Positions 18,013 to 31,748 of a DNA stretch of 64,000 nt are shown here, piece by piece (positions within the stretch are counted from its first letter, which is position 1; the number at the start of each line of letters is the position of its first letter). The position numbers and the translations under genes are program-made. Under the pieces are notes generated by a model. It was given only the letters and a program-made list of their open reading frames with translations. It was not told the origin of the DNA and did no database searches. The DNA comes from an uncultured bacterium (GTDB taxonomy: Bacteria > CSSED10-310 > CALFER01), in contig CALFER010000038.1 of assembly GCA_937951895.1 (NCBI GenBank), forward strand, positions 67,029 to 131,028, in the 5' to 3' direction.

Positions 18013-20277
18013 TCAGTCGTCTTCTTCGTTATCCGAGTGGAGCATCAGGTCGGCCAGACCACATGTTGCCAACTGACGCTCGATTTCCTGAACGGTTTCA
18101 TAGCGATCATCGGGACCCTTTTCGAGACATTTCATGATGAGATCGTTCATCCATCGCGGGAGATCCGGTTGGCGTTCGATGGGTGGGATCGGTTCTGTTT
18201 CGACCTGATCCACCAGGACTTTGAACGAATCGGGGCTCGTGAAGGGCGGTGATCCGACACATGCTTCGTACAGAATCGTTCCGAGCGAATAGATATCGCT
18301 GCGTGTATCGGTCGATTCCCCCTTTGCCTGCTCGGGACTCATGTATTCAGGTGTCCCGACGACAAAGTCCGAATCGCTGTCTTTGGTGAGTCCCATGACC
18401 ATCGCGATCCCGAAGTCCACGAGTTTGACGATGCCGGCATCGTTGATCAGGATATTCTGAGGTTTGATGTCGCGATGGACGATACCCAGGCGGTGAGCGG
18501 CCCAGAGGCCGGCGCAGACCTGCGTCATGACCTGGATGACGGTGTCGATATCGAAGGTTTTTTCGGTGCGGATCATCGCCTTCAGATCCCGGCTCGGGAA
18601 GAACTCCATCGAGATATACAGAAGGTTGTTCACCTTTTCAAAATCGTACAGTTGCACGACATTGTCGTGATGGACTTTGCGTGCGAGATTGACTTCCTGT
18701 TTGAATCGGTGAATCATTTCAGAATCGTTTGCGTATTTGGGCTTGAGGACTTTGAGAGCGACTTCGTTGGACAGTTCCTGGTCGAATGCCCGATACACGA
18801 CGCCCATTCCGCCTGCCCCGACCCGCTCACGAATGACGTACCGTTCCGCCACGATCGATCCCGCCGCGAACTGATGCGGGAACGTGGTCGTCGGGCGCGT
18901 CCTGCCGTCCCTTGCAACGTGTGCGAGTTGGGAGAGTTTGGTCCTGACCTGTCGATAGCCCAGATCGAACGCCGAAATTCTCTCGAAGATCTTCACCGCG
19001 CGTTCCGGTTGTCCCCGGGATTCGAATCCACATCCCAGTTCGTAATACACATCGATGTTATCAGCTGAGACTTCCTCTTCGAGGAGGTATTTCAGGTAGT
19101 TATCGTATCCGAGATCAAAATTGCCGCGGCGGAGAAACGCCTGGCCGAGCAGATTGCGAATAGGGACCGTGCGACTTCCTTGTGACCAGGCATTTTGCAG
19201 AACCTGGATAGCCAGATCGAGGTTATTGAGCTGGAGATACAACTGGCCGGCTTTATAGGGTTCGTTCGCCAATGCGTACAGATCGGCAGCTTTATCGTAT
19301 TCACCCAGTTGTTCGCGAAGTTCCGCCGCCTGGTTGGTGTCGCCGAGTTGTTCGGAGAGAACCGCGGCATCGAGCAGGCGCCCGGCGCGCAGGAACATCT
19401 CGGCTGCTTTTCGCGGTCGATCCGTCAACCGATACATCTCCCCCGCTTTGGCAAACTCGCCCGATAGTTCGTACGCCTCCGCCGCGATCTTGAATTCGCC
19501 GCTGTCATCCGCCAGAACAGCCGCTTTCGAGAATTCGTTTTCCGACAGTAACTTCTGGATCTGCAGGAAACGGGCTTTGTTGATTTCCCCCAGTTCATTG
19601 TAAATCGAAGCCGCTTCTTCCCACCGGTTGACGGATTCGAGATACCGAGCGGCTTGCGCCAGATCACCGACAATCCGTGAGACGCGGACAGCTTCGTCGA
19701 TCTCACCGGCCCTGAAAAACAATTCCGCCGCTGTCTGATACTTCCTCAGTTGCTCATAAGCTCGGGCACACTGGACCGCAAGATCCTGTTTGATCAGACG
19801 TCCCGAGGCATCCGTTTTGTTCTCGTAATAGGGATTCTCGAGGATGCGCTCAAAACAGGCGATCACTTTGCCATACATCCCTCGTTCAAAGTAGAGTCGT
19901 CCCGCCCGGATGTAATCCTGAGCTTCTTCGAGCATGGTCGCCGCATCGGAAGTAGCATCCGCAAGCATGTACATTTCAGCCGCAAGAAGTGGAATGCCGG
20001 CTTCCTTGTACATCATTCCCGCCTGATAGTAGTCCTTGATCTCCTTGAACATCTCGGCGGATTTAGCATACTGCCCCGCTTTGGCGAAATGCCGTGCCGC
20101 TTCCTTGTTGCGACCGAGCCATTCGAGGAGCGGGGCGGAGCGATGATACGCGCGGACCTTGAGATACATATCGAGAGCTTTTTCAAATTCACCGGCCGCC
20201 CGGAACAAATCACCGGCATCCAGATATTCTCCGCGCTGTGCCAGTTTCTGAGCTTCCTTGATGTTTCCGTGCGCCAT
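18013..20277 (-). CDS. TPR-repeat protein fused to C-terminal Ser/Thr protein kinase
   Basis: About 450 aa of TPR-like A/Y/L-rich repeats, then a kinase domain: RVGAGGMGVVYRA, ALKVLKP, HRDIKPQNILI, DFGIA, GTPEYMSPEQ. Confidence 0.85.
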   Translation of the reverse strand: MAHGNIKEAQKLAQRGEYLDAGDLFRAAGEFEKALDMYLKVRAYHRSAPLLEWLGRNKEAARHFAKAGQYAKSAEMFKEIKDYYQAGMMYKEAGIPLLAAEMYMLADATSDAATMLEEAQDYIRAGRLYFERGMYGKVIACFERILENPYYENKTDASGRLIKQDLAVQCARAYEQLRKYQTAAELFFRAGEIDEAVRVSRIVGDLAQAARYLESVNRWEEAASIYNELGEINKARFLQIQKLLSENEFSKAAVLADDSGEFKIAAEAYELSGEFAKAGEMYRLTDRPRKAAEMFLRAGRLLDAAVLSEQLGDTNQAAELREQLGEYDKAADLYALANEPYKAGQLYLQLNNLDLAIQVLQNAWSQGSRTVPIRNLLGQAFLRRGNFDLGYDNYLKYLLEEEVSADNIDVYYELGCGFESRGQPERAVKIFERISAFDLGYRQVRTKLSQLAHVARDGRTRPTTTFPHQFAAGSIVAERYVIRERVGAGGMGVVYRAFDQELSNEVALKVLKPKYANDSEMIHRFKQEVNLARKVHHDNVVQLYDFEKVNNLLYISMEFFPSRDLKAMIRTEKTFDIDTVIQVMTQVCAGLWAAHRLGIVHRDIKPQNILINDAGIVKLVDFGIAMVMGLTKDSDSDFVVGTPEYMSPEQAKGESTDTRSDIYSLGTILYEACVGSPPFTSPDSFKVLVDQVETEPIPPIERQPDLPRWMNDLIMKCLEKGPDDRYETVQEIERQLATCGLADLMLHSDNEEDD

Positions 20278-20491
20278 AAACTCCCCAACTGCTTGAGTAT
20301 AGGCGTTTGGTGCGAGACGTCAAGATGCAGATACCCGATCCACGTCTGATCACACATCTCGGGTGCAGCCATCTTCCGGACTATTTTTTTTCCGCACTGG
20401 AATTTTCCATCAATTTGACGGAAAATCCAGCTGGGGGCATGGGATTCACGATCCGAGCGGCCGGCCGGAGATCCGGAGACAGGAGCGGCAC

Positions 20492-20875
20492 ATGGAGAAT
20501 CTGATGAAGCTATTGAACATCCAGGAGGGGAAAACAATCGAGGAACGCCGGGAAATCGAGCGCAAGCAGCTGACGAAGCCGATATCGGTCACGTTCAGCA
20601 TCGAGCACGAAGGCGAGATCACGGATATCACCAGCGAGGGAATCGGGATCAAATTTCATCCGCTCGGTACAGAAGCATTGAATGTCGGGCGGAGAGTTCG
20701 ACTGCATCTGAACATGAATGACCGGATCGTCAGTCTCCATGGGGAAATCCGCCGGATCAGCGAGAAATTCGGACACATCATTCTGGGCTTGGCTTATGAC
20801 CGTGACGATGTCGCCACGTTCAATCTGAGCCCATCCGACAAGACCGACCAGGATTCAGAGTCCCGGGATCGGTGA
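20492..20875 (+). CDS. PilZ-domain protein
   Basis: AGGAG RBS then ATG at 20492. RREIERKQ (RxxxR) and DITSEGIGIKF (DxSxxG) match the two c-di-GMP-binding PilZ motifs. Confidence 0.6.
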   Translation: MENLMKLLNIQEGKTIEERREIERKQLTKPISVTFSIEHEGEITDITSEGIGIKFHPLGTEALNVGRRVRLHLNMNDRIVSLHGEIRRISEKFGHIILGLAYDRDDVATFNLSPSDKTDQDSESRDR

Positions 20876-20876
20876 T

Positions 20877-23330
20877 TCATCTCGGTCCGAAACCGAATGT
20901 CCAGGAACTGATTCCATCCGGGCCACCGAGCAATTCGGTCAGTGAGGCGTTCATCATACCACCCCAGAAGGTGATCCCGTCCAGAGACGCATTGCCGGTA
21001 TCCGGCCAGTCGAACATGGGCAGAATCATGCAGTCGCTATGGCCATGGATCAGTGTGACCGGTTGCCAGTCCAGATCATGCGTCCATGTCGGATGAAACC
21101 AATATTCCGAGCCGATCTGGAGAATGACGAACAATGCGGCATCGACCGGAGTCGCGTGATCAGATCCCAGAGTGGCTTTCAGATAACAGGGATCACCCGG
21201 TGAGAATCGATGCGACGGCATCTCGAGGACAACACCGGTCACAGGTGCTGAAGGCGTCGGCAGAGTGGGAGGCGACAATTGCGTCGAGGCGTGGATGAAA
21301 GCGTCGATTCCGTATAAATCACCATCAACCACATGCAGCACATTCGATGAATCGATCACAGAATCGCTCCCGCTGGAGCAGTTTACTCGATCGACGATTC
21401 TTTCCGATGACCAGGTTCCGTTGTATTTGTAAAAGTGTTCAATTGAGCACTGATCGGTGGAAAACACTCTTTTATGAAACATAATATGCGGATTACCCTG
21501 AACATCGAAAACGAGATCCGGAAATTCGTAATAATCCCGGTTCGGAATCGCTTCGTATTCCCAGCCATAGGCAGTTCGTGTCATGAAATACAACGTGGGC
21601 CAGTAAATTTGCTGATAGACAATGCAAATCCTTCCCCCACGATCCAGTTCCATATCGAAGGCTTCCACCTCGGAACGATCCAGATCAACAACCCATCCGG
21701 ATTCGCTCCGGTAGAGGCATCTGAGGCTGGCGTCTTCCATTCTATGACTCAACCATGGAACTCCCTGTGCATCAATGAGCAGTTTTGTCGGGAGAGCATA
21801 GAATTCATATTCAGCGACCGGTTCGATCGTCCAGTTTTCACCTGTGTTATATGCATAATACGTCACATGTCGTGACTCCGGTGATCTCTGGTCGAAACTG
21901 ATGCCGATCGTGCCGTCCGGACCAACCGCAATGTTGGTTTCCGTACAGGGACCACCGGACATGAGAGTCTCAAATTCCCACCGTCCCGCGACCATACGCC
22001 CAAACTGAAGCGCTTCCTCACCCGCAATCACCATCACCGGTTGATCACCGGCCGCGATAGCTATCGAAGACTCCATTCCTTTGTCAGCCACGATCGTTGA
22101 ATTCCAATCGCCCGATAAATCTGTATCAAATGCAATATGGACAGGACAGGCAGAGTCACCCACAAGCGAGTGGCTGATATACAAATGATCGGATGAATCG
22201 ACAGCAAGTGACGGCAGGTATCCATTGATCGCAGAACAGGCGATATATTCTCCGGTCCAGGAATCATCATTCTGTTCTAGATACCGCAAGTCAGGATAGT
22301 TCTGGTATGCCAGGCGGAGCATCCCGGTTCCTCCTGACAACCAAGCCCTGCAAGGTGAGTTAAAATCAGTATCCAGATGCTCCTCGTTCCATATCGTTGC
22401 TTCGCGGTAGAAATGCGTTAATGCATAATCGGCGCCGAGAATGATCACATGTGCGTCTTCCCCGTCAATAACCATCGACAGAACATCTCGTGAGCCGCTG
22501 TAAAAAGGTTCATGGTACCAGGTTCCGCCCTCCTGATACGACAAATACATCTGATCCGCCGTTTCCGTGAAAAGCGCGTAAGCCACATACGGATTATTCG
22601 CACTGTCCAATGCAATCGCCCATGAGCCAACAAGCGGGCTCTGACCCACAGATTCAGTATTTACAACCATCCCCTCTGTACTCACCGTTGCGTAATAAAG
22701 TGTCTCCCGCGGTATGTACTTTACGTAAACCATTCTGATTACATCATCGCTTCCCATGGCTGCTTCTGCTGAATACGATTCGGAATCAATCAGTTGCGAT
22801 GTCCAGATCGAATCCATCCAAATCCCGTGCCGGAGTGAATTAGCACGGCCTCCGAACACCACATGCATGCGATCATTCGAATCGAACATACACGCGTAGA
22901 TCCTGTTGATCCTGTCGACATCCGTTTCCACGATCTCGGAATGCCACACCGCACTCTCCCGTTTGAAGACGCGGATGCCCATCGAATCGAAGCATATGAT
23001 ATGCGGAGTGTCACTCGAGTCAAAAGAAAGATGGATGTCACAAGCCGAGTCGGGCAAATCCGATACGATTTCAGATTGCCATTCATCGCCAACCCGTGAA
23101 AAGTAACTCAGAAAATAGCCCAATGTCCCCTCACGGTCAGAGAGTGCGATTGCTGCATGGAGTTGATTCTGATGATCGACCGCGAACATACTCACGATGT
23201 ACGAGTCCATAGCATCGGGTTTCCACAGCGTTTCGATTGTCCAGTCATGTGCGAACAAGACAGACCCGATCGACATCAGGATGAAGGACACCAACACAAT
23301 GCGATATCTCGAGCCAGCAACATTCACCAT
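20877..23330 (-). CDS. Secreted repeat (probable beta-propeller-type) protein, paralog 1, with conserved C-terminal domain
   Basis: GGAGG RBS and ATG at 23328-23330. Signal peptide IVLVSFILMSIGSVLFA. About 45-aa repeats of the type W..E.I....s...Ai..D..G.pHi.y. C-terminal block ...DAALFVILQIGSEYWFHPTWTHDLDW...ITFWGGMMNASLTELLGGPDGI is shared with four other proteins. Confidence 0.7.
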   Translation of the reverse strand: MVNVAGSRYRIVLVSFILMSIGSVLFAHDWTIETLWKPDAMDSYIVSMFAVDHQNQLHAAIALSDREGTLGYFLSYFSRVGDEWQSEIVSDLPDSACDIHLSFDSSDTPHIICFDSMGIRVFKRESAVWHSEIVETDVDRINRIYACMFDSNDRMHVVFGGRANSLRHGIWMDSIWTSQLIDSESYSAEAAMGSDDVIRMVYVKYIPRETLYYATVSTEGMVVNTESVGQSPLVGSWAIALDSANNPYVAYALFTETADQMYLSYQEGGTWYHEPFYSGSRDVLSMVIDGEDAHVIILGADYALTHFYREATIWNEEHLDTDFNSPCRAWLSGGTGMLRLAYQNYPDLRYLEQNDDSWTGEYIACSAINGYLPSLAVDSSDHLYISHSLVGDSACPVHIAFDTDLSGDWNSTIVADKGMESSIAIAAGDQPVMVIAGEEALQFGRMVAGRWEFETLMSGGPCTETNIAVGPDGTIGISFDQRSPESRHVTYYAYNTGENWTIEPVAEYEFYALPTKLLIDAQGVPWLSHRMEDASLRCLYRSESGWVVDLDRSEVEAFDMELDRGGRICIVYQQIYWPTLYFMTRTAYGWEYEAIPNRDYYEFPDLVFDVQGNPHIMFHKRVFSTDQCSIEHFYKYNGTWSSERIVDRVNCSSGSDSVIDSSNVLHVVDGDLYGIDAFIHASTQLSPPTLPTPSAPVTGVVLEMPSHRFSPGDPCYLKATLGSDHATPVDAALFVILQIGSEYWFHPTWTHDLDWQPVTLIHGHSDCMILPMFDWPDTGNASLDGITFWGGMMNASLTELLGGPDGISSWTFGFGPR

Positions 23331-23417: not shown

Positions 23418-23855
23418 TCAAACACTTGCGAGGCGTTCGAGATCGAATGCGGACACGGCACCGAGCAGACGATTGATTTCCCTGCCATACTCAAACACCA
23501 GAACGGTCGGCAGGATCTCGATGCCGTAAAAACGATTCATCTCGGGGTTGTCGGAGATATCGATCGACACAAAGATCGTTTTGTCCTGGAATGCGCGTGC
23601 CGTGATGTCGAACAGCGGGATAAAATCCCGGGCGCCCGGAGCCCAGGGCGCCCAGAATACAGCGATCATTCTTTTTTTACATAATCCCAGAAACTTGGGA
23701 AATGTCGCATCACCCAGCGGGACGGAAGAGTCCTTCCGGATCGGAAACAGGCAGACCGGACAGTAGGCGTAATCGGTTGCCTTGTCGATCAGTACCGGAG
23801 ACACATGCGCACAGATCGGGCACTTGTGCATCCTTCCGGGTGATGGGACATTCAT
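23418..23855 (-). CDS. Thioredoxin-fold protein lacking the CXXC active site, with N-terminal Cys4 zinc-ribbon
   Basis: N-terminal CPIC...17 aa...CPVC. Thioredoxin-like region ...MIAVFWAPWAPGARDFIPLFD...ILPTVLVFEYGREI... where the canonical WCGPC is replaced by WAPWAPGA. It is the last gene of the operon. Confidence 0.6.
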   Translation of the reverse strand: MNVPSPGRMHKCPICAHVSPVLIDKATDYAYCPVCLFPIRKDSSVPLGDATFPKFLGLCKKRMIAVFWAPWAPGARDFIPLFDITARAFQDKTIFVSIDISDNPEMNRFYGIEILPTVLVFEYGREINRLLGAVSAFDLERLASV

Positions 23856-23856
23856 C

Positions 23857-24543
23857 TCAACTGACTACCCCGAGCCAATCCTTGAAGAGGAAGATGAAAC
23901 GGCCGATGGCCAGCGAAATACGAGCCATGACGGTGAGTCCGAAGGAAGCCCCGAATCCGATCATGACCATCAGAATACCGAAGTTGCTGATTGGCCTCAG
24001 AACACCCTTCTGTTCGGTCGAGAAGAAGAAATAGATCAGCGTGGCGAGTGTCGAGAGCAGGATGACGATGGTCCAGAAACCGGGCCAGAACTCGGCGAGC
24101 TGTGCGCGTGTCACGATGGACGCTTCGAGCTGCCGCAGGATGCCGGCTTCAAAGGATGCCGGAATCGAGATAGCGGTATAGTACCCCATCGTCAATCCGA
24201 TCGGGATCCGCACCATCCAGGAAATCTTCGGGATGAAGCGTGTGATGTACAGCGCACCGACCATCATCGGAAGAATGATGAAGAAGTTGGCATCGTTGAA
24301 GGGATTCAGCACCGCGGTGGAAAAACCGTCCTGTTTGACCATTTTTCCTGCATTCACCAGCGGATCGATCATCATCGGAACAACGACGTTGAAGTAGGTC
24401 AGAGTGATCGAGTAGCCGTTCGCGACGCCGATGTAGAGATGCTCGGCGATTCGATAAAGTGGATTGTCACGCCATAGAAAGGAGAAGATGGCGATAGTCA
24501 GGATGGCGGCATTCCAAGTCCAGAATTCGGTTGCGATGTTCAT
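23857..24543 (-). CDS. Polytopic integral membrane protein (about 6 TM), hypothetical
   Basis: Start MNIATEFW at 24543 with GGAGGGGAG RBS. ATGA overlap with the upstream gene. Hydrophobic throughout. Confidence 0.6.
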   Translation of the reverse strand: MNIATEFWTWNAAILTIAIFSFLWRDNPLYRIAEHLYIGVANGYSITLTYFNVVVPMMIDPLVNAGKMVKQDGFSTAVLNPFNDANFFIILPMMVGALYITRFIPKISWMVRIPIGLTMGYYTAISIPASFEAGILRQLEASIVTRAQLAEFWPGFWTIVILLSTLATLIYFFFSTEQKGVLRPISNFGILMVMIGFGASFGLTVMARISLAIGRFIFLFKDWLGVVS

Positions 24544-25445
24544 ACTCCCCTCCGATTTTCGTGCCGGCGCTGCATGAAGTAGCAGACATTGCCCAGAATC
24601 ACCATGAGGATGATGGCGATATGTGTGGTCGACTGAGCACTCATACCTTCGCATGCCATCCGGCGTTCCTGATCCGAAAACTTCTCCTGAACAAGTTTTT
24701 CGTATTCCGCGGCGCCTTTCATGCCCTCGATCATGCCGGTGAGTTGTCCGGAGTCGAGATACGGGTAGAAGTCCGCGACAGACACGGCCGTGACACCCGC
24801 TGTGACTTTGATGCCGTAGCGAGCCTGCGCGTACGCCACATAGGTGATGGGCAGTGAGTTCGCCGCGATCGATGCGATCATGTCCATATCGCGGTAACTC
24901 TTGATGTTCGTCATCATCGGCTGAAGATTCAGATCATTCCCGTAGAAATCTTTCGGAAATACATCGAAGATGTTTTCACCCAGACCCAGAATCGGAACGA
25001 TGGGAGGGGGTTTCCATCCGAGGAACACATAGTCGCGACCGTAGATGATCCGTTCTTCATCGGTCGTAGCGCGATTGTTGAATTCGCTGACTACCTGGTT
25101 AAAGGCCTGTTCGGCCAATCCGAGCGAATTGGCGTAAAGGCACATCGCCAGCACCTTGATACGGCGGTGGAAACTATGACGGAGCAGTGACACGAGCATG
25201 GGGTAGAGTTCGGGCTGATCCTGCGGGCTCAGATCCGCCGAGATCAGCATGGCGTTGTGTTCTTTGGGGAATTTTTCAACTGCATCGAACAATGCCTGGG
25301 TGGTACGTTCGGAAACACGAATCGGGAGATCGAACGGGAAGATGATCGGGATGATCATGACCAGCGCGACGATGACATAGATCACACGCCGGTCGACACC
25401 CATCATCTTCTGCCAGACAGTCTGAATTTCGACTCGGTTGCTCAT
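24540..25445 (-). CDS. Bitopic membrane protein (N- and C-terminal TM helices flanking about 230-aa extracytoplasmic domain), hypothetical
   Basis: TM VIYVIVALVMIIPIIF near the N-terminus and THIAIILMVILGNVCYF near the C-terminus. ATGA start/stop overlaps with both neighbouring genes. Confidence 0.6.
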   Translation of the reverse strand: MSNRVEIQTVWQKMMGVDRRVIYVIVALVMIIPIIFPFDLPIRVSERTTQALFDAVEKFPKEHNAMLISADLSPQDQPELYPMLVSLLRHSFHRRIKVLAMCLYANSLGLAEQAFNQVVSEFNNRATTDEERIIYGRDYVFLGWKPPPIVPILGLGENIFDVFPKDFYGNDLNLQPMMTNIKSYRDMDMIASIAANSLPITYVAYAQARYGIKVTAGVTAVSVADFYPYLDSGQLTGMIEGMKGAAEYEKLVQEKFSDQERRMACEGMSAQSTTHIAIILMVILGNVCYFMQRRHENRRGV

Positions 25446-26368
25446 TCGTCACCTCCCAGCCACGCGCGTTCTATTCCGAAAATGATTTTGAAGGATGTCG
25501 CGACTGCTCCAAGACCGACGCCGATCATGATACCGCGCTTGGAAGCCATGTTGGGGACATCGAGAATCCACTGGCGGAGTTCATAGACACCGGGGATGTA
25601 GGCGGTTGCAAGCGGGATCTGGCCGAGCATGACGATGAACGCCGAAACCAGCAGAACACCGGCATGCAGGTTGCGCATACGGAATGCCCGGTAGGCCGCC
25701 GAACACATGTAGAAGGCGAGCATCGCAAACATCGTGGATCCGCAGGGGACCAGAATACCTTCAAAAAGCTGCTGAATATGGATCCTGAAATCTTTTTTAA
25801 ATGGCACCGGCTTGCCGGTGACCGGGCTGATCATTTCGAACTGAATCCCGTTGCGGCGCGCATTTGATGCCCGCAGTTCGATCTCGTCACGCAACGATGA
25901 TGCCGCATAGCGCGAAAGAGGGGCTTCGACGTTTGAAGGCAACGGCATCACCGCCCGGGCCGGGTCAACGAATTTATCGGGTGAGGCTTTGAACTGGCCC
26001 ATTTCCGCTTCGTTCTGGAACGCATATACCTGGCCATCGTGCGCAAGGAGGACCAAGCCACCGAAAATCGTCGGCAGGCTTTTTTCTCCGCGCACTCCGC
26101 CGAACAGACCGATGAAGGATGAAATGAAGAGCGAGACCAGTGTGACGTAACTGTATTGCCAGTACCGGGATTTGTTCCGGATCTTCACCATGTGGTGGAA
26201 GATGAGGCTTCCGAGACCCAGAATGATGGCGAAAGCGCCGACGATCAGGAGCAGTTTGTTCCGGAGCAGATTGTCGATTTCGTGGACGGATTCCTTGCCC
26301 ACGAAGACCGATATGCCGCCCCAGATCGCGAAGATGAACAACAAATACAAGGGCAGATTTCGTTTCAT
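25442..26368 (-). CDS. Integral membrane protein, hypothetical
   Basis: MKRNLPLYLLFIFAIWGGISVFV..., multiple TM segments at both ends. RBS GAGGTAGG upstream of the ATG at 26368. Confidence 0.6.
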   Translation of the reverse strand: MKRNLPLYLLFIFAIWGGISVFVGKESVHEIDNLLRNKLLLIVGAFAIILGLGSLIFHHMVKIRNKSRYWQYSYVTLVSLFISSFIGLFGGVRGEKSLPTIFGGLVLLAHDGQVYAFQNEAEMGQFKASPDKFVDPARAVMPLPSNVEAPLSRYAASSLRDEIELRASNARRNGIQFEMISPVTGKPVPFKKDFRIHIQQLFEGILVPCGSTMFAMLAFYMCSAAYRAFRMRNLHAGVLLVSAFIVMLGQIPLATAYIPGVYELRQWILDVPNMASKRGIMIGVGLGAVATSFKIIFGIERAWLGGDE

Positions 26369-26376
26369 GACCTACC

Positions 26377-27657
26377 TCATTTCACCAGCAGATAGGGAGA
26401 GAGATCCCAATTGAATACGATGGCCAGTATCGAGAACACGACCATGCAGATCATAAAGATCAGCTTGCCGTAATCCTGTGCTTTGAGTGTTCCGAGAAGG
26501 AGTGGTTCCCGCGAGAGATACGCGGAAGCCGCATAGAGTTCTTCGCCGATCAGTGTGTAATCGCACGATGTGATGAAGAAGGGGAGCTGAGCCGGCGTAT
26601 CCGTTCCCGCGATCTGAACCGCTCCGGTCGCCGCTCCGGTTTCAGACATAACCAGCGCTTCCGCCCAGAACATGCCCATGAAGAAGATCGTGGCCGGTTT
26701 CTGCCGGACCATGATGCCATCGACGCCGGCGGCATAGGCAAACTGGTCCGGAACGAGGAAGAACACGGAGTTCGGATCGAACGCGTCCGGCCGTCCCTCG
26801 GATGCATAGGTCTCACGGACAATCTCCCGAGCAATGGTGTAAACAATCGGATCGCGGTTCGGGCAGATGATCTTGACATCGTAATGGACAGTTCTTCGGA
26901 CAACTTCTCCCAGGATATTCAATGATGCCAGTGTGGCGACATCCTCGATGGATGACGTGCCGGGAATATAAAGAACCGGCTTTCCCATCTCCGTCGCACG
27001 CCCGATGGCGTCTTCCACCGCATTCAATCCGGAAATCCTCCGGACAAAAAGCTCCACGCCCCGTCGCGCCGCATTGATGAACATGACCAGGATCAGCACG
27101 AACACCGCGATCGCCACCACGATCGGCATCTTCCCGGTCCGAAACCAGTGATCTCGAGCTTCGATCGGTCCGGCGATGTCCGACGTCATGGAAGCCTCAC
27201 CGTAGAGTGCTTTGACCCGGAAATGGAACTGGGTGAAATTGGGAACTCCGGAGACCTGATAGGAGGTCAAAACGGTGCGGGTAACCTGTTTCCAGAGACC
27301 ATCCGGAGTTTGCATCTCGAGGATGTAGGCATCGGGTTTCGCTTGAGACACATCATGCGGCCAGCGGATCGAGATCGCATTACCCGTGTCGCTCGGGACA
27401 TCCATCGCAACGACGACCGGGAGTGTCGCCCCCGGAGGCACTGTCGGAACCGGAGCAGGCTCGGCCGGAACGGCGTCATCGCCCGCGACTGGTTCAGTGA
27501 TCGGTTCCGGCGCGGCATCTGTCTGAGATGTCTGTTGGTCCTGGCCGATCGCATGCGGTGCACAGGGCATGCAGACGGCTAGAAGACACACAATTCCCGA
27601 CATGATCGCACGCCATACCCGACCGGTTGAACCGGTGCGTATGGTGTGTAGTGTCAT
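26377..27657 (-). CDS. Fn3-domain membrane protein, tandem paralog B
   Basis: AGGAGG RBS then ATG at 27657. Signal peptide. Pro-rich segment. Fn3-like block (ISIRWPHDV...YILEMQTPDGLWKQV...FHFRVKALYG). A TM helix, then a conserved 230-aa domain and a C-terminal TM. About 60-70% aa identity to 27742..28929. Confidence 0.65.
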   Translation of the reverse strand: MTLHTIRTGSTGRVWRAIMSGIVCLLAVCMPCAPHAIGQDQQTSQTDAAPEPITEPVAGDDAVPAEPAPVPTVPPGATLPVVVAMDVPSDTGNAISIRWPHDVSQAKPDAYILEMQTPDGLWKQVTRTVLTSYQVSGVPNFTQFHFRVKALYGEASMTSDIAGPIEARDHWFRTGKMPIVVAIAVFVLILVMFINAARRGVELFVRRISGLNAVEDAIGRATEMGKPVLYIPGTSSIEDVATLASLNILGEVVRRTVHYDVKIICPNRDPIVYTIAREIVRETYASEGRPDAFDPNSVFFLVPDQFAYAAGVDGIMVRQKPATIFFMGMFWAEALVMSETGAATGAVQIAGTDTPAQLPFFITSCDYTLIGEELYAASAYLSREPLLLGTLKAQDYGKLIFMICMVVFSILAIVFNWDLSPYLLVK

Positions 27658-27741
27658 GTGTGGTATGAACCTCCTCTTATTGTTTGAAACATGAATGAAT
27701 TTCAGTTTCCGAATAGGTCTCAGCACGTGTCGAAGAGCCTT

Positions 27742-28929
27742 TCAGCGAACCTGGATCCAGGAAATGACATCGAGATGCGGGAAGATGAGTCCCAAAACGG
27801 TCAGGATCACCATGACGATGATGAAAACGAGTTTGCTGTAGTCCTGGGTTTTGAGCGTACCCAGGAGGATCGGTTCGTTTCCGAGATAGGCGGAAGCAGC
27901 ATAGAGTTCTTCTCCGATCAGCGTGTAATCGCACGCGGTGATGAAGAAGGGCAACTGTCCGAGATCATCCGTGCCGGCGATCTGAACGGCTCCGGTCGAT
28001 GCGCCGGTTTCGGCCATGATCAGTGATTCGGCGGCGAACCATCCCATGAAAAATATCGTCGCCGGTTCCTGTCTGACCATGATGCCATTGACGCCCGCCG
28101 CATACGCGAACTGCTCGGGGACCATAAAAAAGACCGAATCCGGATCGAAAGCATCCGGTCGGCCCTCGGAGTTGTATGTCTCCTTGACGATTTCCCGCGC
28201 GATCGCGAACACGATCGGATCGATATTCGGCACGATGATCTTGACATCGTAATGCACCGTCCGGCGCGCGACCTCACCCAAAATATTCAGGGCTGCCAGC
28301 GTCGCGACATCCTCGATGTAACTCGTACCGGGCACATACAACACCGGCCGGCCCATCTCGGTCGCCCGCCCGATCGCATCCTCGACGGCATTCAATCCGG
28401 TGATCCGCCGGACAAACAATTCGCGGCCAAGGCGTGCCGAGATAATGAAGAAGACGAGAAGTGCGATGAAAATGGCGATGGCCAGCAGAACCGGTATCTT
28501 TCCCAGTTTCAGCCAGTGATCGCGCGCCATCGCACCGGTAACCTCATCGGAGCGGAACACTTTGTCACCATAGACGGCGGCAACCCGAAAAGACATCGGG
28601 GTAAAGTTCGGCAAATCCATCACATCGTAATCCAGAAGAACCGTTTCGGTCACTCGCTGCCAGATCCCGTCCGGCCCGGCCATTTCGACGATGTAATGGT
28701 CGGGAGTCGATCCCGCCGGTTCTTTCCAGGCCACATGAATGACACCACCATCATCATTGTCGACATCGGCGGCGACCACTTCCCGGGGAGATTCGAAGAC
28801 ACGGTCGTCAATCGAAACCGGAACCGGAACCGGGTCCGGGTCCACTAATGGGATCTCCTGACAGAATGCATTCAGGGATAGCGCCAGACTCAGGACGAAA
28901 CACCCGATCAAACCGTTAGCCAGCTTCAT
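27742..28929 (-). CDS. Fn3-domain membrane protein, tandem paralog A
   Basis: Start MKLANGLIGCFVLSLALSLNAFCQ at 28929 with GGAGAG RBS. Same architecture as 26377..27657 (HVAWKEPAGSTPDHYIVEMAGPDGIWQRV...FRVAAVYG). Confidence 0.65.
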   Translation of the reverse strand: MKLANGLIGCFVLSLALSLNAFCQEIPLVDPDPVPVPVSIDDRVFESPREVVAADVDNDDGGVIHVAWKEPAGSTPDHYIVEMAGPDGIWQRVTETVLLDYDVMDLPNFTPMSFRVAAVYGDKVFRSDEVTGAMARDHWLKLGKIPVLLAIAIFIALLVFFIISARLGRELFVRRITGLNAVEDAIGRATEMGRPVLYVPGTSYIEDVATLAALNILGEVARRTVHYDVKIIVPNIDPIVFAIAREIVKETYNSEGRPDAFDPDSVFFMVPEQFAYAAGVNGIMVRQEPATIFFMGWFAAESLIMAETGASTGAVQIAGTDDLGQLPFFITACDYTLIGEELYAASAYLGNEPILLGTLKTQDYSKLVFIIVMVILTVLGLIFPHLDVISWIQVR

Positions 28930-29115
28930 ATCGATTCTCTCTCCGATCGCCGGAAACCGAGCGTCCGAATGTTCTGCAGTCCACACCGAAAGCGTAGCGA
29001 TAATATCTGAATCCAATCCTGTTTTCAAGATTGAATCGACTGCTGTCCAGGCAGCTCTTCCCTCTCCCGGTCATTATCGCTCTGCTGATGAGTTACGGAA
29101 CTCAAACGGGTTTGT

Positions 29116-30294
29116 TCAACCGGAAATCCGGGCGGCCTCCGCCACCACCCGATCGATCTCGGAAGCCGTCACCAATCGAGTCTGAATGTTCCTTCGACTG
29201 GGGTGATAGCACGCGATGACCACCGGGAGCCCCTCACCCGGCGAAACGGTCCGGCCGTGGTGGAATTCCGGCACGCGAGCATGCGGGTTCAGTATGCGGA
29301 AAACGGATCGGAAGGACAGGACTCCGAGAGCCAGAATCGTGTTCAGTCGATGCAATGTCTGAAGTTCCAACGCCAGAAACGCCTCACAACGACGAATCTC
29401 CCGGGTTTCCGGTTTGTTTTCGGGCGGCACACATTTCACGCAATTGGTGATGAAGACATCGTCGAGAGCCAGTCCATCGCCCCGATGTGAAGGCGACGGA
29501 CGATTGCTCCTGTCGATCGCATGCAGCGCCCGATACAGGATTTCCCCGGCATAATCGCCCGTAAACGGTCGACCGGTCCGGTTCGCACCATGCGCTCCGG
29601 GAGCGAGGCCGACGATAGCCAGACGCGCAGCGGGGTCACCGAAACCAGGCACAGGACGATTCCAGTACGCTGCGCCTGCATGATGACGATCGGGTTGGAT
29701 CGACGAGCGAAAACGGGCGAGACGCGGACAGGCATTACATCCCAGAATCGACTGGATCGGATACCGGAGCAGCGTTGGAGTGCGACCCGCGAGTGAAGAC
29801 TGGTAAAGGGACAGTTCATATCGGAAGTTCGGTGTCAGCTCGCCCGACTTTGCCATCCGCTCCAGCGTGTCGAAGTCGAAAAACGCAACCCGATCGATCT
29901 CGTCCGGCGCACACCCGAACGGCCCCTCCGACTGAGCCAGAAATGTCGTGACATCCTCGGATTCGAGATCCGACAGCCAGAGATAGTTGTGGAGCGGGGG
30001 GAACGATTCGGGTTGGATCCCGAGTTCCTCGCGGCACTCACGCCGGGCCGCATCGAGAGGCGATTCGCCCGGGTCGAGATGTCCGCCGACGGACGTATCC
30101 CATTTCCCGGGCTGAATGTCCTTCGAAGCGGATCGTTTCTGCGCGAGGATTCTGCCGGAGGCATCGGTCACGAGCACATGGACGACGCGATGCGTGAGTG
30201 CCGGATTGCCGTGACATTCGGAGCGCAGGCGCGGTTCGAGAAGTCGCCCGTCGGCATCGACACAAACCAGATACTCGCCATGAGCCGCCGCCAT
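29116..30294 (-). CDS. Nudix hydrolase fused to family-4-type uracil-DNA glycosylase
   Basis: Nudix box GGHLDPGESPLDAARRECREELGI. C-terminal half has the UDG family 4/5 signature LAIVGLAPGAHGANRTGRPFTGDYAGEILY plus a downstream HPS-type motif (CYHPSRRN). Start MAAAHGEY at 30294 with AGGAG RBS. Confidence 0.75.
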   Translation of the reverse strand: MAAAHGEYLVCVDADGRLLEPRLRSECHGNPALTHRVVHVLVTDASGRILAQKRSASKDIQPGKWDTSVGGHLDPGESPLDAARRECREELGIQPESFPPLHNYLWLSDLESEDVTTFLAQSEGPFGCAPDEIDRVAFFDFDTLERMAKSGELTPNFRYELSLYQSSLAGRTPTLLRYPIQSILGCNACPRLARFRSSIQPDRHHAGAAYWNRPVPGFGDPAARLAIVGLAPGAHGANRTGRPFTGDYAGEILYRALHAIDRSNRPSPSHRGDGLALDDVFITNCVKCVPPENKPETREIRRCEAFLALELQTLHRLNTILALGVLSFRSVFRILNPHARVPEFHHGRTVSPGEGLPVVIACYHPSRRNIQTRLVTASEIDRVVAEAARISG

Positions 30295-30308
30295 GCAATC
30301 TCCTTTCG

Positions 30309-31748
30309 TCACACGCGATTGTATTCTTCCCATATCGTTTCGACGATGTGCCCGAGCCGCTTCGTGCGGATCGCTTTCCGAATGCCGGAGACGTATCCGC
30401 CGGGTCGTCGTGTCATGTCTCTCAGGACGTCAAAAAGAAACGCGGGATAGAGGAAATACCCGCGAATGTTGCGCCAGAAAAAGGCATTGTCGAATTCCCG
30501 GCGGATCGCCTGCATTGAAGCGGCGTCGAGCGAGATCGTGACGGCGGGGGACTCGGTCTGCCGGATGATCCATCGTTCGGAAAAATCCGGATCCGCCGGA
30601 AGCCATCCCTTCGCCAGCGCTTCGTCGAACAGAACGGATCCCGGGAGCGGGGTCGTGAAGGTCACCACGACATGGTCCGGCCGGATCTCCCGCGCCAGCT
30701 TCAACGACGCCCGCGCATCCTCGATGGTTTCATCCGGAATGCCGATCATGAAGTTGGCGAGCGTCCTGAGGCCGACCTTGCGGCAGATCGCGAACGCGCG
30801 CCTGACATCGTCCGGATCGCTTCCCTTGCGCAAGCGCCGCAGCATGCGTTCGGAGCCGGATTCGACGCCAAATTCGAGTTGCAGACAGCCGCTCCGACGC
30901 ATCTCGCGGAAGATCCCCTCATCCGCGCGCCGGACGTGCGCCTGACATCCCCATGCCAGACCGGTCTGCCGCATGCCGGCGCACAGTTCCAGCAGCCAGT
31001 CCCGATCTTCGAGCAGCGTATCGTCCAGAAACCAGATGCCGTCGATCCGATAGCGCCGGATCAGCAGTTCGATCTCCGCCATGACGTGGCCCACCGAACG
31101 CCGACGCACGCGGCTTCCGAACAATTCCTTCGAGGAGCAGAAAATGCAGCCGAACGGGCAGCCGCGCGATGAGATGATCGAGGTGGCGCGCCAGAGGAGT
31201 TTGCCGCGTATATTGCCCGGCGGCCGGAGATATCGCTCGAAACGCACCGCTTCACGATCAGGGAACGGCAGGGAATCGAGCGGATCGATCAGGGGCCTCC
31301 GCGCGGTTCGAACCAGAATCCCGTCGCGTAAAAACGCAAGCCCGGCGACCTCCTCCGGCGAAAGGCCGCTCCGCAACGCTTCGGCGACTTCGGGAAAGGT
31401 GATCTCCCCCTCACCCAGCACCACGAAATCGAACCCGAATTTTCGCAGCGTCCACTCGGGAAGCGCCGTGGGATGGATGCCTCCGCCGACCGTCACAACG
31501 CCCGGCAATCGATCCCGGATCCGCTCCTGCAGCGTCAGACCTCGAGCGACCTGGGTGGTGAGCAGGCTCATGCCGATCAGGTCCGGCTTCGATGCGGCGA
31601 TCTGATCGATCACGGTCGGATCGCCGGGATCGGGATCCAGCACCGTGATGTCGTGACCGTGCGGCTTGAGGTTTGCGGCGAGACTCAGGAGGCCGAGCGG
31701 CGGATCGGGCGTGTTCCCGGAACGCGGTCTAATCAGGGTGATGCGCAT
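30309..31748 (-). CDS. B12-binding (class B) radical SAM enzyme
   Basis: N-terminal cobalamin-binding-like Rossmann block (MRITLIRPR...PLGLLSLAANL...DLIGMSLLT). Radical SAM cluster motif SSRGCPFGCIFCSS. Start MRITLI at 31748. Confidence 0.8.
   Translation of the reverse strand: MRITLIRPRSGNTPDPPLGLLSLAANLKPHGHDITVLDPDPGDPTVIDQIAASKPDLIGMSLLTTQVARGLTLQERIRDRLPGVVTVGGGIHPTALPEWTLRKFGFDFVVLGEGEITFPEVAEALRSGLSPEEVAGLAFLRDGILVRTARRPLIDPLDSLPFPDREAVRFERYLRPPGNIRGKLLWRATSIISSRGCPFGCIFCSSKELFGSRVRRRSVGHVMAEIELLIRRYRIDGIWFLDDTLLEDRDWLLELCAGMRQTGLAWGCQAHVRRADEGIFREMRRSGCLQLEFGVESGSERMLRRLRKGSDPDDVRRAFAICRKVGLRTLANFMIGIPDETIEDARASLKLAREIRPDHVVVTFTTPLPGSVLFDEALAKGWLPADPDFSERWIIRQTESPAVTISLDAASMQAIRREFDNAFFWRNIRGYFLYPAFLFDVLRDMTRRPGGYVSGIRKAIRTKRLGHIVETIWEEYNRV

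Follow-up and report, generated by a model that had tools for sequence, protein, structure and literature searches.

What is encoded by six closely spaced genes at positions 23418-28929 of a 64,000-nucleotide stretch of DNA (the window; contig CALFER010000038.1 of assembly GCA_937951895.1) from an uncultured bacterium of CSSED10-310, a rare uncultured phylum (PMC8248873)? The original prediction, made from the sequence, described one translationally coupled six-gene unit for membrane proteins that ends in a redox-dead thioredoxin-like protein. Our analysis indicates with high probability that the evolutionary unit is a set of four genes, one DUF6754 gene followed by G3, G4 and G5, with lineage-specific add-ons. 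Judged from its sequence, the locus may represent the CSSED10-310 version of a four-gene inner-membrane complex that serves as an ATP-independent transport or translocation device, a reading to which we give close to an even chance. The genes are as follows:

27742..28929, minus strand: G1, 395 aa, first subunit with fibronectin type III (Fn3) and DUF6754 domains
26377..27657, minus strand: G2, 426 aa, second Fn3 and DUF6754 subunit, paralog of G1
25442..26368, minus strand: G3, 308 aa, polytopic membrane subunit with 6 predicted transmembrane (TM) segments
24540..25445, minus strand: G4, 301 aa, bitopic subunit with a Rossmann-like domain
23857..24543, minus strand: G5, 228 aa, polytopic, with about 6-7 hydrophobic segments
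23418..23855, minus strand: G6, 145 aa, Trx2 (TrxC)-like protein with a Cys4 ribbon and without CxxC

The arrangement of the six open reading frames (ORFs), all on the minus strand with two ATGA overlaps and gaps of 1-84 nt, was confirmed by the ORF list, by reading of the sequence and by public gene models. The overlaps, read directly from the sequence, form the G3/G4 and G4/G5 junctions; the gaps measure 84 nt (G1/G2), 8 nt (G2/G3) and 1 nt (G5/G6). Within the 84-nt gap, AAGAGGAGG precedes the start of G2. Public contigs with identical proteins carry independently called gene models that agree with G1 to G6, the sole difference being the start of G6, which is placed at Met9 (137 aa) on one of these contigs.

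Does this arrangement extend to relatives? Homologues that share sequence words amount to 743 for G4, 2150 for G5 and at least 8000 for DUF6754 (clusters at 90% identity). An exhaustive profile search for the G4 family yielded 3652 clusters at 50% identity (E <= 1e-3), 676 of them at E <= 1e-30. The GTDB species representatives include 258 stretches with a gene for a G4 relative. The best 80 of these 258 were surveyed; all are metagenome-assembled genomes, which belong to CSSED10-310, WOR-3/Stahlbacteria, TA06, Fermentibacteria, Edwardsbacteria, Eisenbacteria and Latescibacterota, with one labelled Gemmatimonadota. One further locus is labelled Myxococcota. ORFs were called on all recovered loci (about 90) and assigned with phmmer. 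Wherever a locus extends far enough to hold them, the genes follow the order DUF6754-G3-G4-G5, which gives 84 distinct complete cassettes from at least 8 phyla. A 4-nt overlap joins G3 to G4 at 80 of 93 distinct junctions and G4 to G5 at 64 of 86, and the median gap between DUF6754 and G3 is 9 nt. Most of 22 inspected WOR-3/TA06-type cassettes are preceded by a strong AAGGAGG.

The cassette is also duplicated as a unit. WOR-3 and TA06 genomes contain two or three tandem complete cassettes (L005 8247-19027, L043, L074, L056 and L086; L numbers denote recovered loci). All four subunits of these tandem cassettes have co-diverged to 60-80% identity, the most divergent part being the Fn3 ectodomain at about 50%, and the pairwise-distance matrices of the four families correlate with r values of 0.87-0.92. 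Clustering of 504 flanking ORFs from the approximately 90 loci (within ±8-10 kb) revealed no neighbour conserved across phyla, no partner gene and no ATPase. Owing to the invariant order, the conserved coupling, the duplication as a unit, the co-divergence and the autonomy from other genes, it is very likely that DUF6754, G3, G4 and G5 form a conserved, obligate hetero-oligomeric membrane complex. The idea of one coupled unit therefore survives for these four genes, on the grounds of order, overlaps and cassette duplication, and fails for six, since the second DUF6754 gene and G6 are lineage-restricted. Likewise, the gene order is kept in relatives for the four-gene core and not for the six-gene version. 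What the CSSED10-310 lineage has added is a second DUF6754 gene, an insert within G3 and a redox-dead thioredoxin.

Profile comparison detected no relationship among the four families: hhalign gave probabilities below 1% for G4 versus DUF6754 and for G3 versus G5. A by-eye impression that the α/β domains of G4 and DUF6754 are paralogous found no support in the same comparison; the two have only the TM-α/β-TM layout in common. Profile searches of the PDB with all four families recovered Fn3 only.

What do the individual subunits contribute? G1 and G2 score 361.4 and 370.2 bits against Pfam DUF6754 (PF20539, gathering score 27 bits) and cover profile positions 2-248 of 257. In both, an Fn3 module, assigned by sequence profile or structure, stands ahead of DUF6754, which is the common architecture within this family. 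Their overall identity is 60%, with 46% for the ectodomains and 77% for the TM and cytoplasmic parts, and thus the two Fn3-domain paralogs named in the original prediction are real. The duplication is lineage-specific; a second DUF6754 copy was seen in L001/L003/L009 and L032 only, i.e. in the nearest relatives of the window and in one other locus. Hydropathy over the family alignments predicts a signal peptide and two TM helices for both proteins. In G1 the signal peptide comprises aa 1-21, Fn3 aa 49-135 (nt 28525-28785) and the first TM helix aa 142-166, followed by a conserved α/β domain (aa ~170-350) and a second TM helix (aa 353-382). An AlphaFold model of G1 contains the same succession of signal peptide, Fn3, TM helix, α/β domain and TM helix. 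The α/β domain is presumably cytoplasmic, because positive charges follow the first TM helix (ARRGxxLFVRR). Across phyla this cytoplasmic part has a mean identity of 66%, with many invariant acidic residues and the invariant C333. In most cassettes Fn3 is present as a single copy about 7 residues or less from the membrane. Some second tandem cassettes encode DUF6754 proteins of 587-786 aa, and these variants differ by extra Fn3 repeats only, so that the number of Fn3 modules ranges from one to several. In a fold search with the G1 model, Fn3 matches swamped all others.

A layout of Fn3, TM helix and cytoplasmic domain is receptor-like, and the ectodomain diverges fastest. Both features would suit a surface receptor or signalling complex in which Fn3 and G4 sense a ligand and the DUF6754 domain relays the signal. 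We regard such a complex as very improbable, as there is no kinase, cyclase, helix-turn-helix or other output domain and no conserved regulator nearby, and such a complex would give no reason for the roughly 12 TM helices of the two polytopic subunits.

A loop of DUF6754, AETGAsTGA (AETGAxTGA), looks like a loop that binds phosphoribosyl pyrophosphate, and purF, MazG and NUDIX genes are found upstream. For these two reasons a relationship to phosphoribosyltransferases was tested by comparing it, in hhalign, with alignments of Hpt and of PurF from the recovered loci. The resulting probabilities were 0.1-0.2% and the candidate was rejected.

G4 consists of an N-terminal TM helix (aa 19-35), an α/β domain (aa 46-256) that is predicted to be periplasmic, and a C-terminal helix (aa 263-298). 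The latter has 36 residues, contains the second TM segment and carries the invariant residues H275 and N286. A confident AlphaFold2 model built from the G4 family alignment, with a predicted local distance difference test (pLDDT) score of 89.9, shows the α/β domain as six-stranded, parallel and Rossmann-like. The first TM helix is preceded by DRR (D18 and R19 invariant, R20 at least 90% conserved) and the second is followed by RRxxRR. These flanking charges place the α/β domain outside the cytoplasm, a location that also suits a G4 homologue with an inserted CARDB domain. The mean identity of G4 across phyla is 55%, and neither Pfam nor NCBIfam contains a matching family. Large inserts in the loop after helix 105-125 occur in some family members, among them P0365 (L089 8001-10517) and P0474; one insert of about 500 aa includes the CARDB domain, and another of about 350 aa consists of HEAT repeats.

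The bitopic topology of G4 (TM helix, large extracytoplasmic α/β-containing domain, TM helix) is shared with GldG/ABC_transp_aux, and G4 had been described as GldG-like. This description is correct for the topology and not for the sequence, as no GldG/ABC_transp_aux match was obtained; in addition, G4 has about half the size of GldG and a single Rossmann-like domain. The topology is also what would favour an ABC-2/GldFG-type or another known multi-subunit transporter, with its ATPase or energiser encoded elsewhere. That explanation is largely refuted and in our view barely tenable. A Pfam scan of 157 family members (46 G5, 20 G3, 42 G4 and 49 DUF6754) and the NCBIfam search revealed no match of any subunit to ABC2_membrane, ABC_transp_aux or a transporter family, either singly or over family alignments (E <= 1-5). 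In contrast to GldAFG-type ABC-2 systems, the cassette contains neither an ABC-2 permease nor an ATPase. Within 8 kb of the cassettes in the approximately 90 loci the only genes of the ATP-binding cassette (ABC) type belong to ABC-F, and the proposed check for a nearby ABC ATPase or energiser thus found none that is conserved; a distant, unlinked ATPase could still exist. Assignment of the members to a known system by profile searches was not possible either.

The best of the weak fold matches of G4 include halves of GT-B glycosyltransferases, namely PimA (E 7e-4), OtsA, SdgB, WaaC and UDP-glycosyltransferases, all with a TM-score <= 0.33. Moreover, the conservation of the cytoplasmic DUF6754 part with its acidic residues and C333 is enzyme-like, a Wzi capsule-assembly gene follows one cassette, and the cassettes are located among housekeeping genes. 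Such features might be expected of an enzyme complex in the membrane that makes or modifies a component of the envelope, e.g. a lipid-linked glycan or lipid, with DUF6754 as the catalytic subunit and G4 acting periplasmically. This explanation seems unlikely to us, though it is the least unlikely of the alternatives. TM-scores in this range are typical of any Rossmann fold. The profile scans gave no catalytic motif and no enzyme family in any subunit, as stated in the original prediction. Furthermore, no conserved genes for sugar nucleotides or lipid carriers lie nearby, and a core biosynthetic enzyme would not usually be encoded by three paralog cassettes in tandem.

For G3, hydropathy and family alignments predict six TM segments with both termini inside and with the positive loops HxxKIRRK and YRAFRxR on the inner side. 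The motifs MxSAxYRxFR and GIERxWLGG are invariant, as is H59, which is situated in or next to a TM helix; the mean identity across phyla is 61%. In the CSSED10-310 clade only, G3 carries a periplasmic insert of about 90 aa (residues ~93-200, nt 25769-26092), and orthologues outside this clade have about 219 aa. The insert in the window reads HDGQVYAFQNEAEMGQFKASPDKF and has no cysteines; three insert-bearing orthologues gave weak matches to the YHS domain (best E 0.0033). G3 has no family match in Pfam or NCBIfam. In 7 of 20 orthologues (e.g. L025 7327-7986), positions ~156-311 of Pfam DUF373 (PF04123) align colinearly with G3 residues ~11-164, which correspond to TM1-TM5, always below the threshold (best 17.9 bits, E 0.0023, versus a gathering score of 28.3 bits). 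DUF373 comprises uncharacterised archaeal integral membrane proteins (COG2237). The colinearity concerns their C-terminal membrane part, whereas their N-terminal soluble domain is absent from G3. In the literature searched, DUF373 turns up in one complexome table only, as a protein that lacks annotation.

G5 has about 6-7 hydrophobic segments according to hydropathy and family alignments. It ends in the invariant motif FGASFGxTVMxRxSLxIGR...DWLG and has polar residues in or next to TM segments, of which E34 and N42 are invariant and H35 is at least 90% conserved. Its mean identity across phyla is 60%. None of the 46 family members has a Pfam match, NCBIfam contains no family for G5, and the family profile found no PDB chain at E <= 10. 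UniRef names one homologue from Eisenbacteria (P0219) 'prolipoprotein diacylglyceryl transferase'. LGT is not among the 25 most frequent of the 31 Pfam families matched by the 46 G5 members at E <= 5, and no Lgt structure in the PDB was matched; the name looks like an unsupported automatic prediction.

Invariant polar and charged residues in or next to TM helices may also be read as parts of an ion path. This is the basis of another explanation, according to which the cassette encodes an envelope machine driven by ion-motive force, like ExbBD-TonB, TolQR or GldLM, whose ion flow would move the periplasmic Fn3 and G4 parts acting on the cell wall or outer membrane. An external stalk with a variable number of Fn3 modules would suit such a machine, as would the restriction of the cassette to diderm lineages of the FCB (Fibrobacteres-Chlorobi-Bacteroidetes) type. 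A Por_Secre_tail gene, encoding a cargo protein of the type IX secretion system (T9SS), adjoins the cassette in 13 WOR-3-type loci; it lies on the opposite strand and occurs in one lineage only. There is no similarity to MotA/ExbB/TolQ or GldL/M, and the sole trace is a MotA_ExbB match at E 0.55 in one G3 orthologue. The window proteins matched neither the MotA_ExbB channel domain of these stators nor a single-TM partner such as MotB/ExbD. Furthermore, the single membrane-proximal Fn3 of most cassettes is too short to span the periplasm. An ion-driven machine is, in our estimation, a little less probable still than the enzyme complex.

How, then, could the complex work? An ATP-independent transport or translocation device is the most economical model, because no ATPase is present. 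G3 with six and G5 with about 6-7 TM segments would form the membrane core, the whole complex having about 16 TM helices. Held by its two TM helices, G4 would present a Rossmann-like ligand- or partner-binding domain in the periplasm, and the DUF6754 subunit, likewise with two TM helices, would have its Fn3 module(s) outside and its conserved α/β domain in the cytoplasm. Secondary structure suggests that the invariant residues of both α/β domains lie at the C-terminal ends of strands and in the loops that follow, which is the usual ligand-binding crevice. A cargo or an envelope partner might be engaged by the external G4 and Fn3 parts and then cross the membrane by way of the G3/G5 core, after which the DUF6754 domain in the cytoplasm would bind or process it; transport would be gradient-driven or facilitated. 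In CSSED10-310 the second DUF6754 paralog, the periplasmic G3 insert and a cytoplasmic, redox-dead Trx2-like subunit with a structural or docking role would be accessories to this device. The model fits the paralog cassettes, in which the outward-facing parts diverge fastest, and the invariant polar residues in or next to TM helices of G3, G4 and G5 also speak for it. Transport or translocation as the activity is nevertheless a tentative assignment, for which doubt clearly prevails.

Several points weigh against this model. Hydropathy and the positive-inside rule are the sole basis of the topologies. Neither of the two subunits modelled, G4 and G1, revealed a transporter, channel or motor fold, and the fold search with G4 returned generic Rossmann matches only. 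In the G1 model the most conserved part of DUF6754 (aa 275-337) has a pLDDT below 50. As a rule, known secondary transporters consist of one chain that contains internal repeats, and such repeats were not detected in any of the four families. Clues to a substrate are missing, as neither a riboswitch nor a conserved metabolic partner was found, and a full-text literature search gave no mention of DUF6754.

Is the cassette a variant of something described? The tripartite ATP-independent periplasmic (TRAP) transporters DctPQM and the tripartite tricarboxylate transporters (TTT) TctABC are comparable by analogy only. They, too, combine several small membrane subunits with an extracytoplasmic α/β domain, lack an ATPase and occur as paralogous copies of an operon. 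They differ in that no subunit is homologous, the G4 domain, which comprises one lobe rather than two, is fixed to the membrane by both of its ends, and the cassette adds a cytoplasmic domain. The Pfam entry for DUF6754 describes one domain and gives no function, and its invariant partners G3, G4 and G5 lie outside any family. On the basis of Pfam, NCBIfam and PDB profile searches and of the literature, we rate the cassette as apparently outside known kinds, since one subunit is a Pfam domain of unknown function, three belong to no family, no system shares its homology or architecture, and the literature is silent. Remote homology could still tie it to a known superfamily. As a reasonable conjecture, in which doubt somewhat outweighs confidence, the cassette might represent a class of inner-membrane machine that has not been described before, made of four subunits, independent of ATP and a hallmark of the uncultured candidate phyla related to FCB. 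In it, ligand-binding α/β domains on opposite faces would be joined by a novel core of about 16 TM helices, with a new mechanism of transport or vectorial processing that has no relation to the catalogued families.

The cassette is abundant and conserved like core enzymes over at least 8 phyla with almost no cultured members. Its function, once known, would annotate thousands of 'hypothetical' membrane proteins and might reveal a new transport or envelope mechanism, a trait common to WOR-3, Fermentibacteria, Eisenbacteria, Latescibacterota, CSSED10-310 and their relatives. Strain sy37 of WOR-3 has been isolated (PMC12285271); if it carries the cassette, the function becomes experimentally testable.

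What is the role of G6, the last gene of the window version? Its thioredoxin fold is indicated by a score of 46.7 bits against Pfam Thioredoxin (PF00085, cut-off 23.5) and by E 1e-13 against solved thioredoxins. The NCBIfam model TrxC (PRK10996) is matched with E 1.4e-16 and 60.5 bits, compared with an equivalog cut-off of 125. G6 shares with TrxC the CxxC pairs of a Zn ribbon, the thioredoxin fold and the cis-Pro region (ILPT). Aligned with TrxC and with PDB 3p2a (residues 8-131), G6 matches from its residue 11-12 onwards. The Cys4 ribbon is formed by C12-P-I-C15 and C32-P-V-C35, two CxxC pairs that correspond by sequence to a zinc finger of the Trx2 type. G6 differs from TrxC, which has a WCGPC active site, and also by its position in a membrane-protein operon. 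In the alignment to solved thioredoxins FWAPWAPGARDF of G6 stands opposite FWAPWCGPCRAM, and consequently G6 has lost both cysteines of the active site; in place of WCGPC it has WAPGA (aa 71-75, within FWAPWAPGA at about nt 23631-23654). All eight orthologues (8/8) lack CxxC and keep every ribbon cysteine, so the redox-dead state is conserved and not a product of decay. The profile matches, the alignment and the orthologues bear out the description of G6 as a thioredoxin fold with a lost CXXC and a Cys4 ribbon. Disulfide reductase chemistry is excluded, because the active-site cysteines are missing from G6 and from all eight orthologues. G6 has neither a signal peptide nor a TM segment and is confined to the CSSED10-310 clade among the loci compared. 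It is best read as a putative lineage-specific, cytoplasmic structural or docking subunit that is coupled to G5. Such a subunit would be another thioredoxin fold recruited structurally into a membrane complex.

Which genes surround the cassette? Directly upstream in the window, a gene at 29116-30333 (minus strand) encodes a 405-aa fusion of a NUDIX hydrolase (YfcD/isopentenyl-diphosphate isomerase-like) and a family-4 uracil-DNA glycosylase. Counting the window, 8 CSSED10-310 loci have this fusion ahead of the cassette. About 23 WOR-3-type loci have in this place a MazG of about 95 aa with a C-terminal GCPKC..PC.C motif, which in L089 lies 9 nt from the cassette. PurF is the upstream neighbour in 6 loci; in five of these the distance is between -3 and 43 nt, in L057 it is 267 nt, and in two loci PurF overlaps DUF6754 by 4 nt. 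In Eisenbacteria, CdaA is found upstream. Nucleotide-related upstream neighbours are located as follows, with corresponding genes in related loci:

L005 7428-7712, same strand as the cassette: nucleotide-related neighbour
L089 5760-6056, same strand as the cassette: nucleotide-related neighbour
L058 4778-6217, same strand as the cassette: nucleotide-related neighbour
L006 4690-5499, same strand as the cassette: nucleotide-related neighbour

These same-strand neighbours are lineage-specific, yet all of them belong to nucleotide metabolism, which could be a coincidence or a functional hint. Together with the weak links to DUF373, this neighbourhood may give a hint as to the ancestry and the cargo of the complex. 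On the downstream side, the Wzi outer-membrane protein gene of L089 (11215-12795, capsule assembly) lies on the same strand, 69 nt after the cassette.

An origin in a defence system or a phage was also considered and dismissed. PADLOC had no matches, and PHROGs returned weak generic Fn3/Hoc-like and thioredoxin matches together with three non-significant ones (E 0.025-0.082) to families of unknown function.

Two further features of the window flank the six genes:

29000..29028, minus strand: sigma-70-like promoter match TTGAAA-17-TATTAT, 10/12 consensus positions, about 70 nt upstream of the G1 start
20877..23330, minus strand: G7, 817 aa, acidic, outside the conserved cassette

The first is a possible candidate for the operon promoter, although the sigma-70 consensus may not be that of the host; with 4 such sites observed versus 6.8 expected in shuffled sequences, the site upstream of G1 is not significant alone. 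Searches of the window, the G1 leader and 8 other loci against Rfam gave no match, and no conserved leader was seen by eye across the inspected cassettes. G7 follows G6 at a distance of 87 nt and has AAGGAGG ahead of its start; in the window the two may share a transcript. The protein has an N-terminal signal anchor, a marginal BNR_4 match and 112 Asp and Glu versus 41 Lys and Arg residues. No NCBIfam model matched it, including the model of the T9SS C-terminal domain. G7 is restricted to the closest relatives (L001/L002/L009).

Two more genes lie beyond G7. A small ORF on the plus strand (20363-20875) has a borderline PilZ domain (22.0 bits versus a cut-off of 22.5). Beside it, the minus strand (18013-20277) encodes a 754-aa protein in which tetratricopeptide-like (TPR-like) repeats are followed by the Hanks-type kinase motif HRDIKPQNIL, as recognised by eye.

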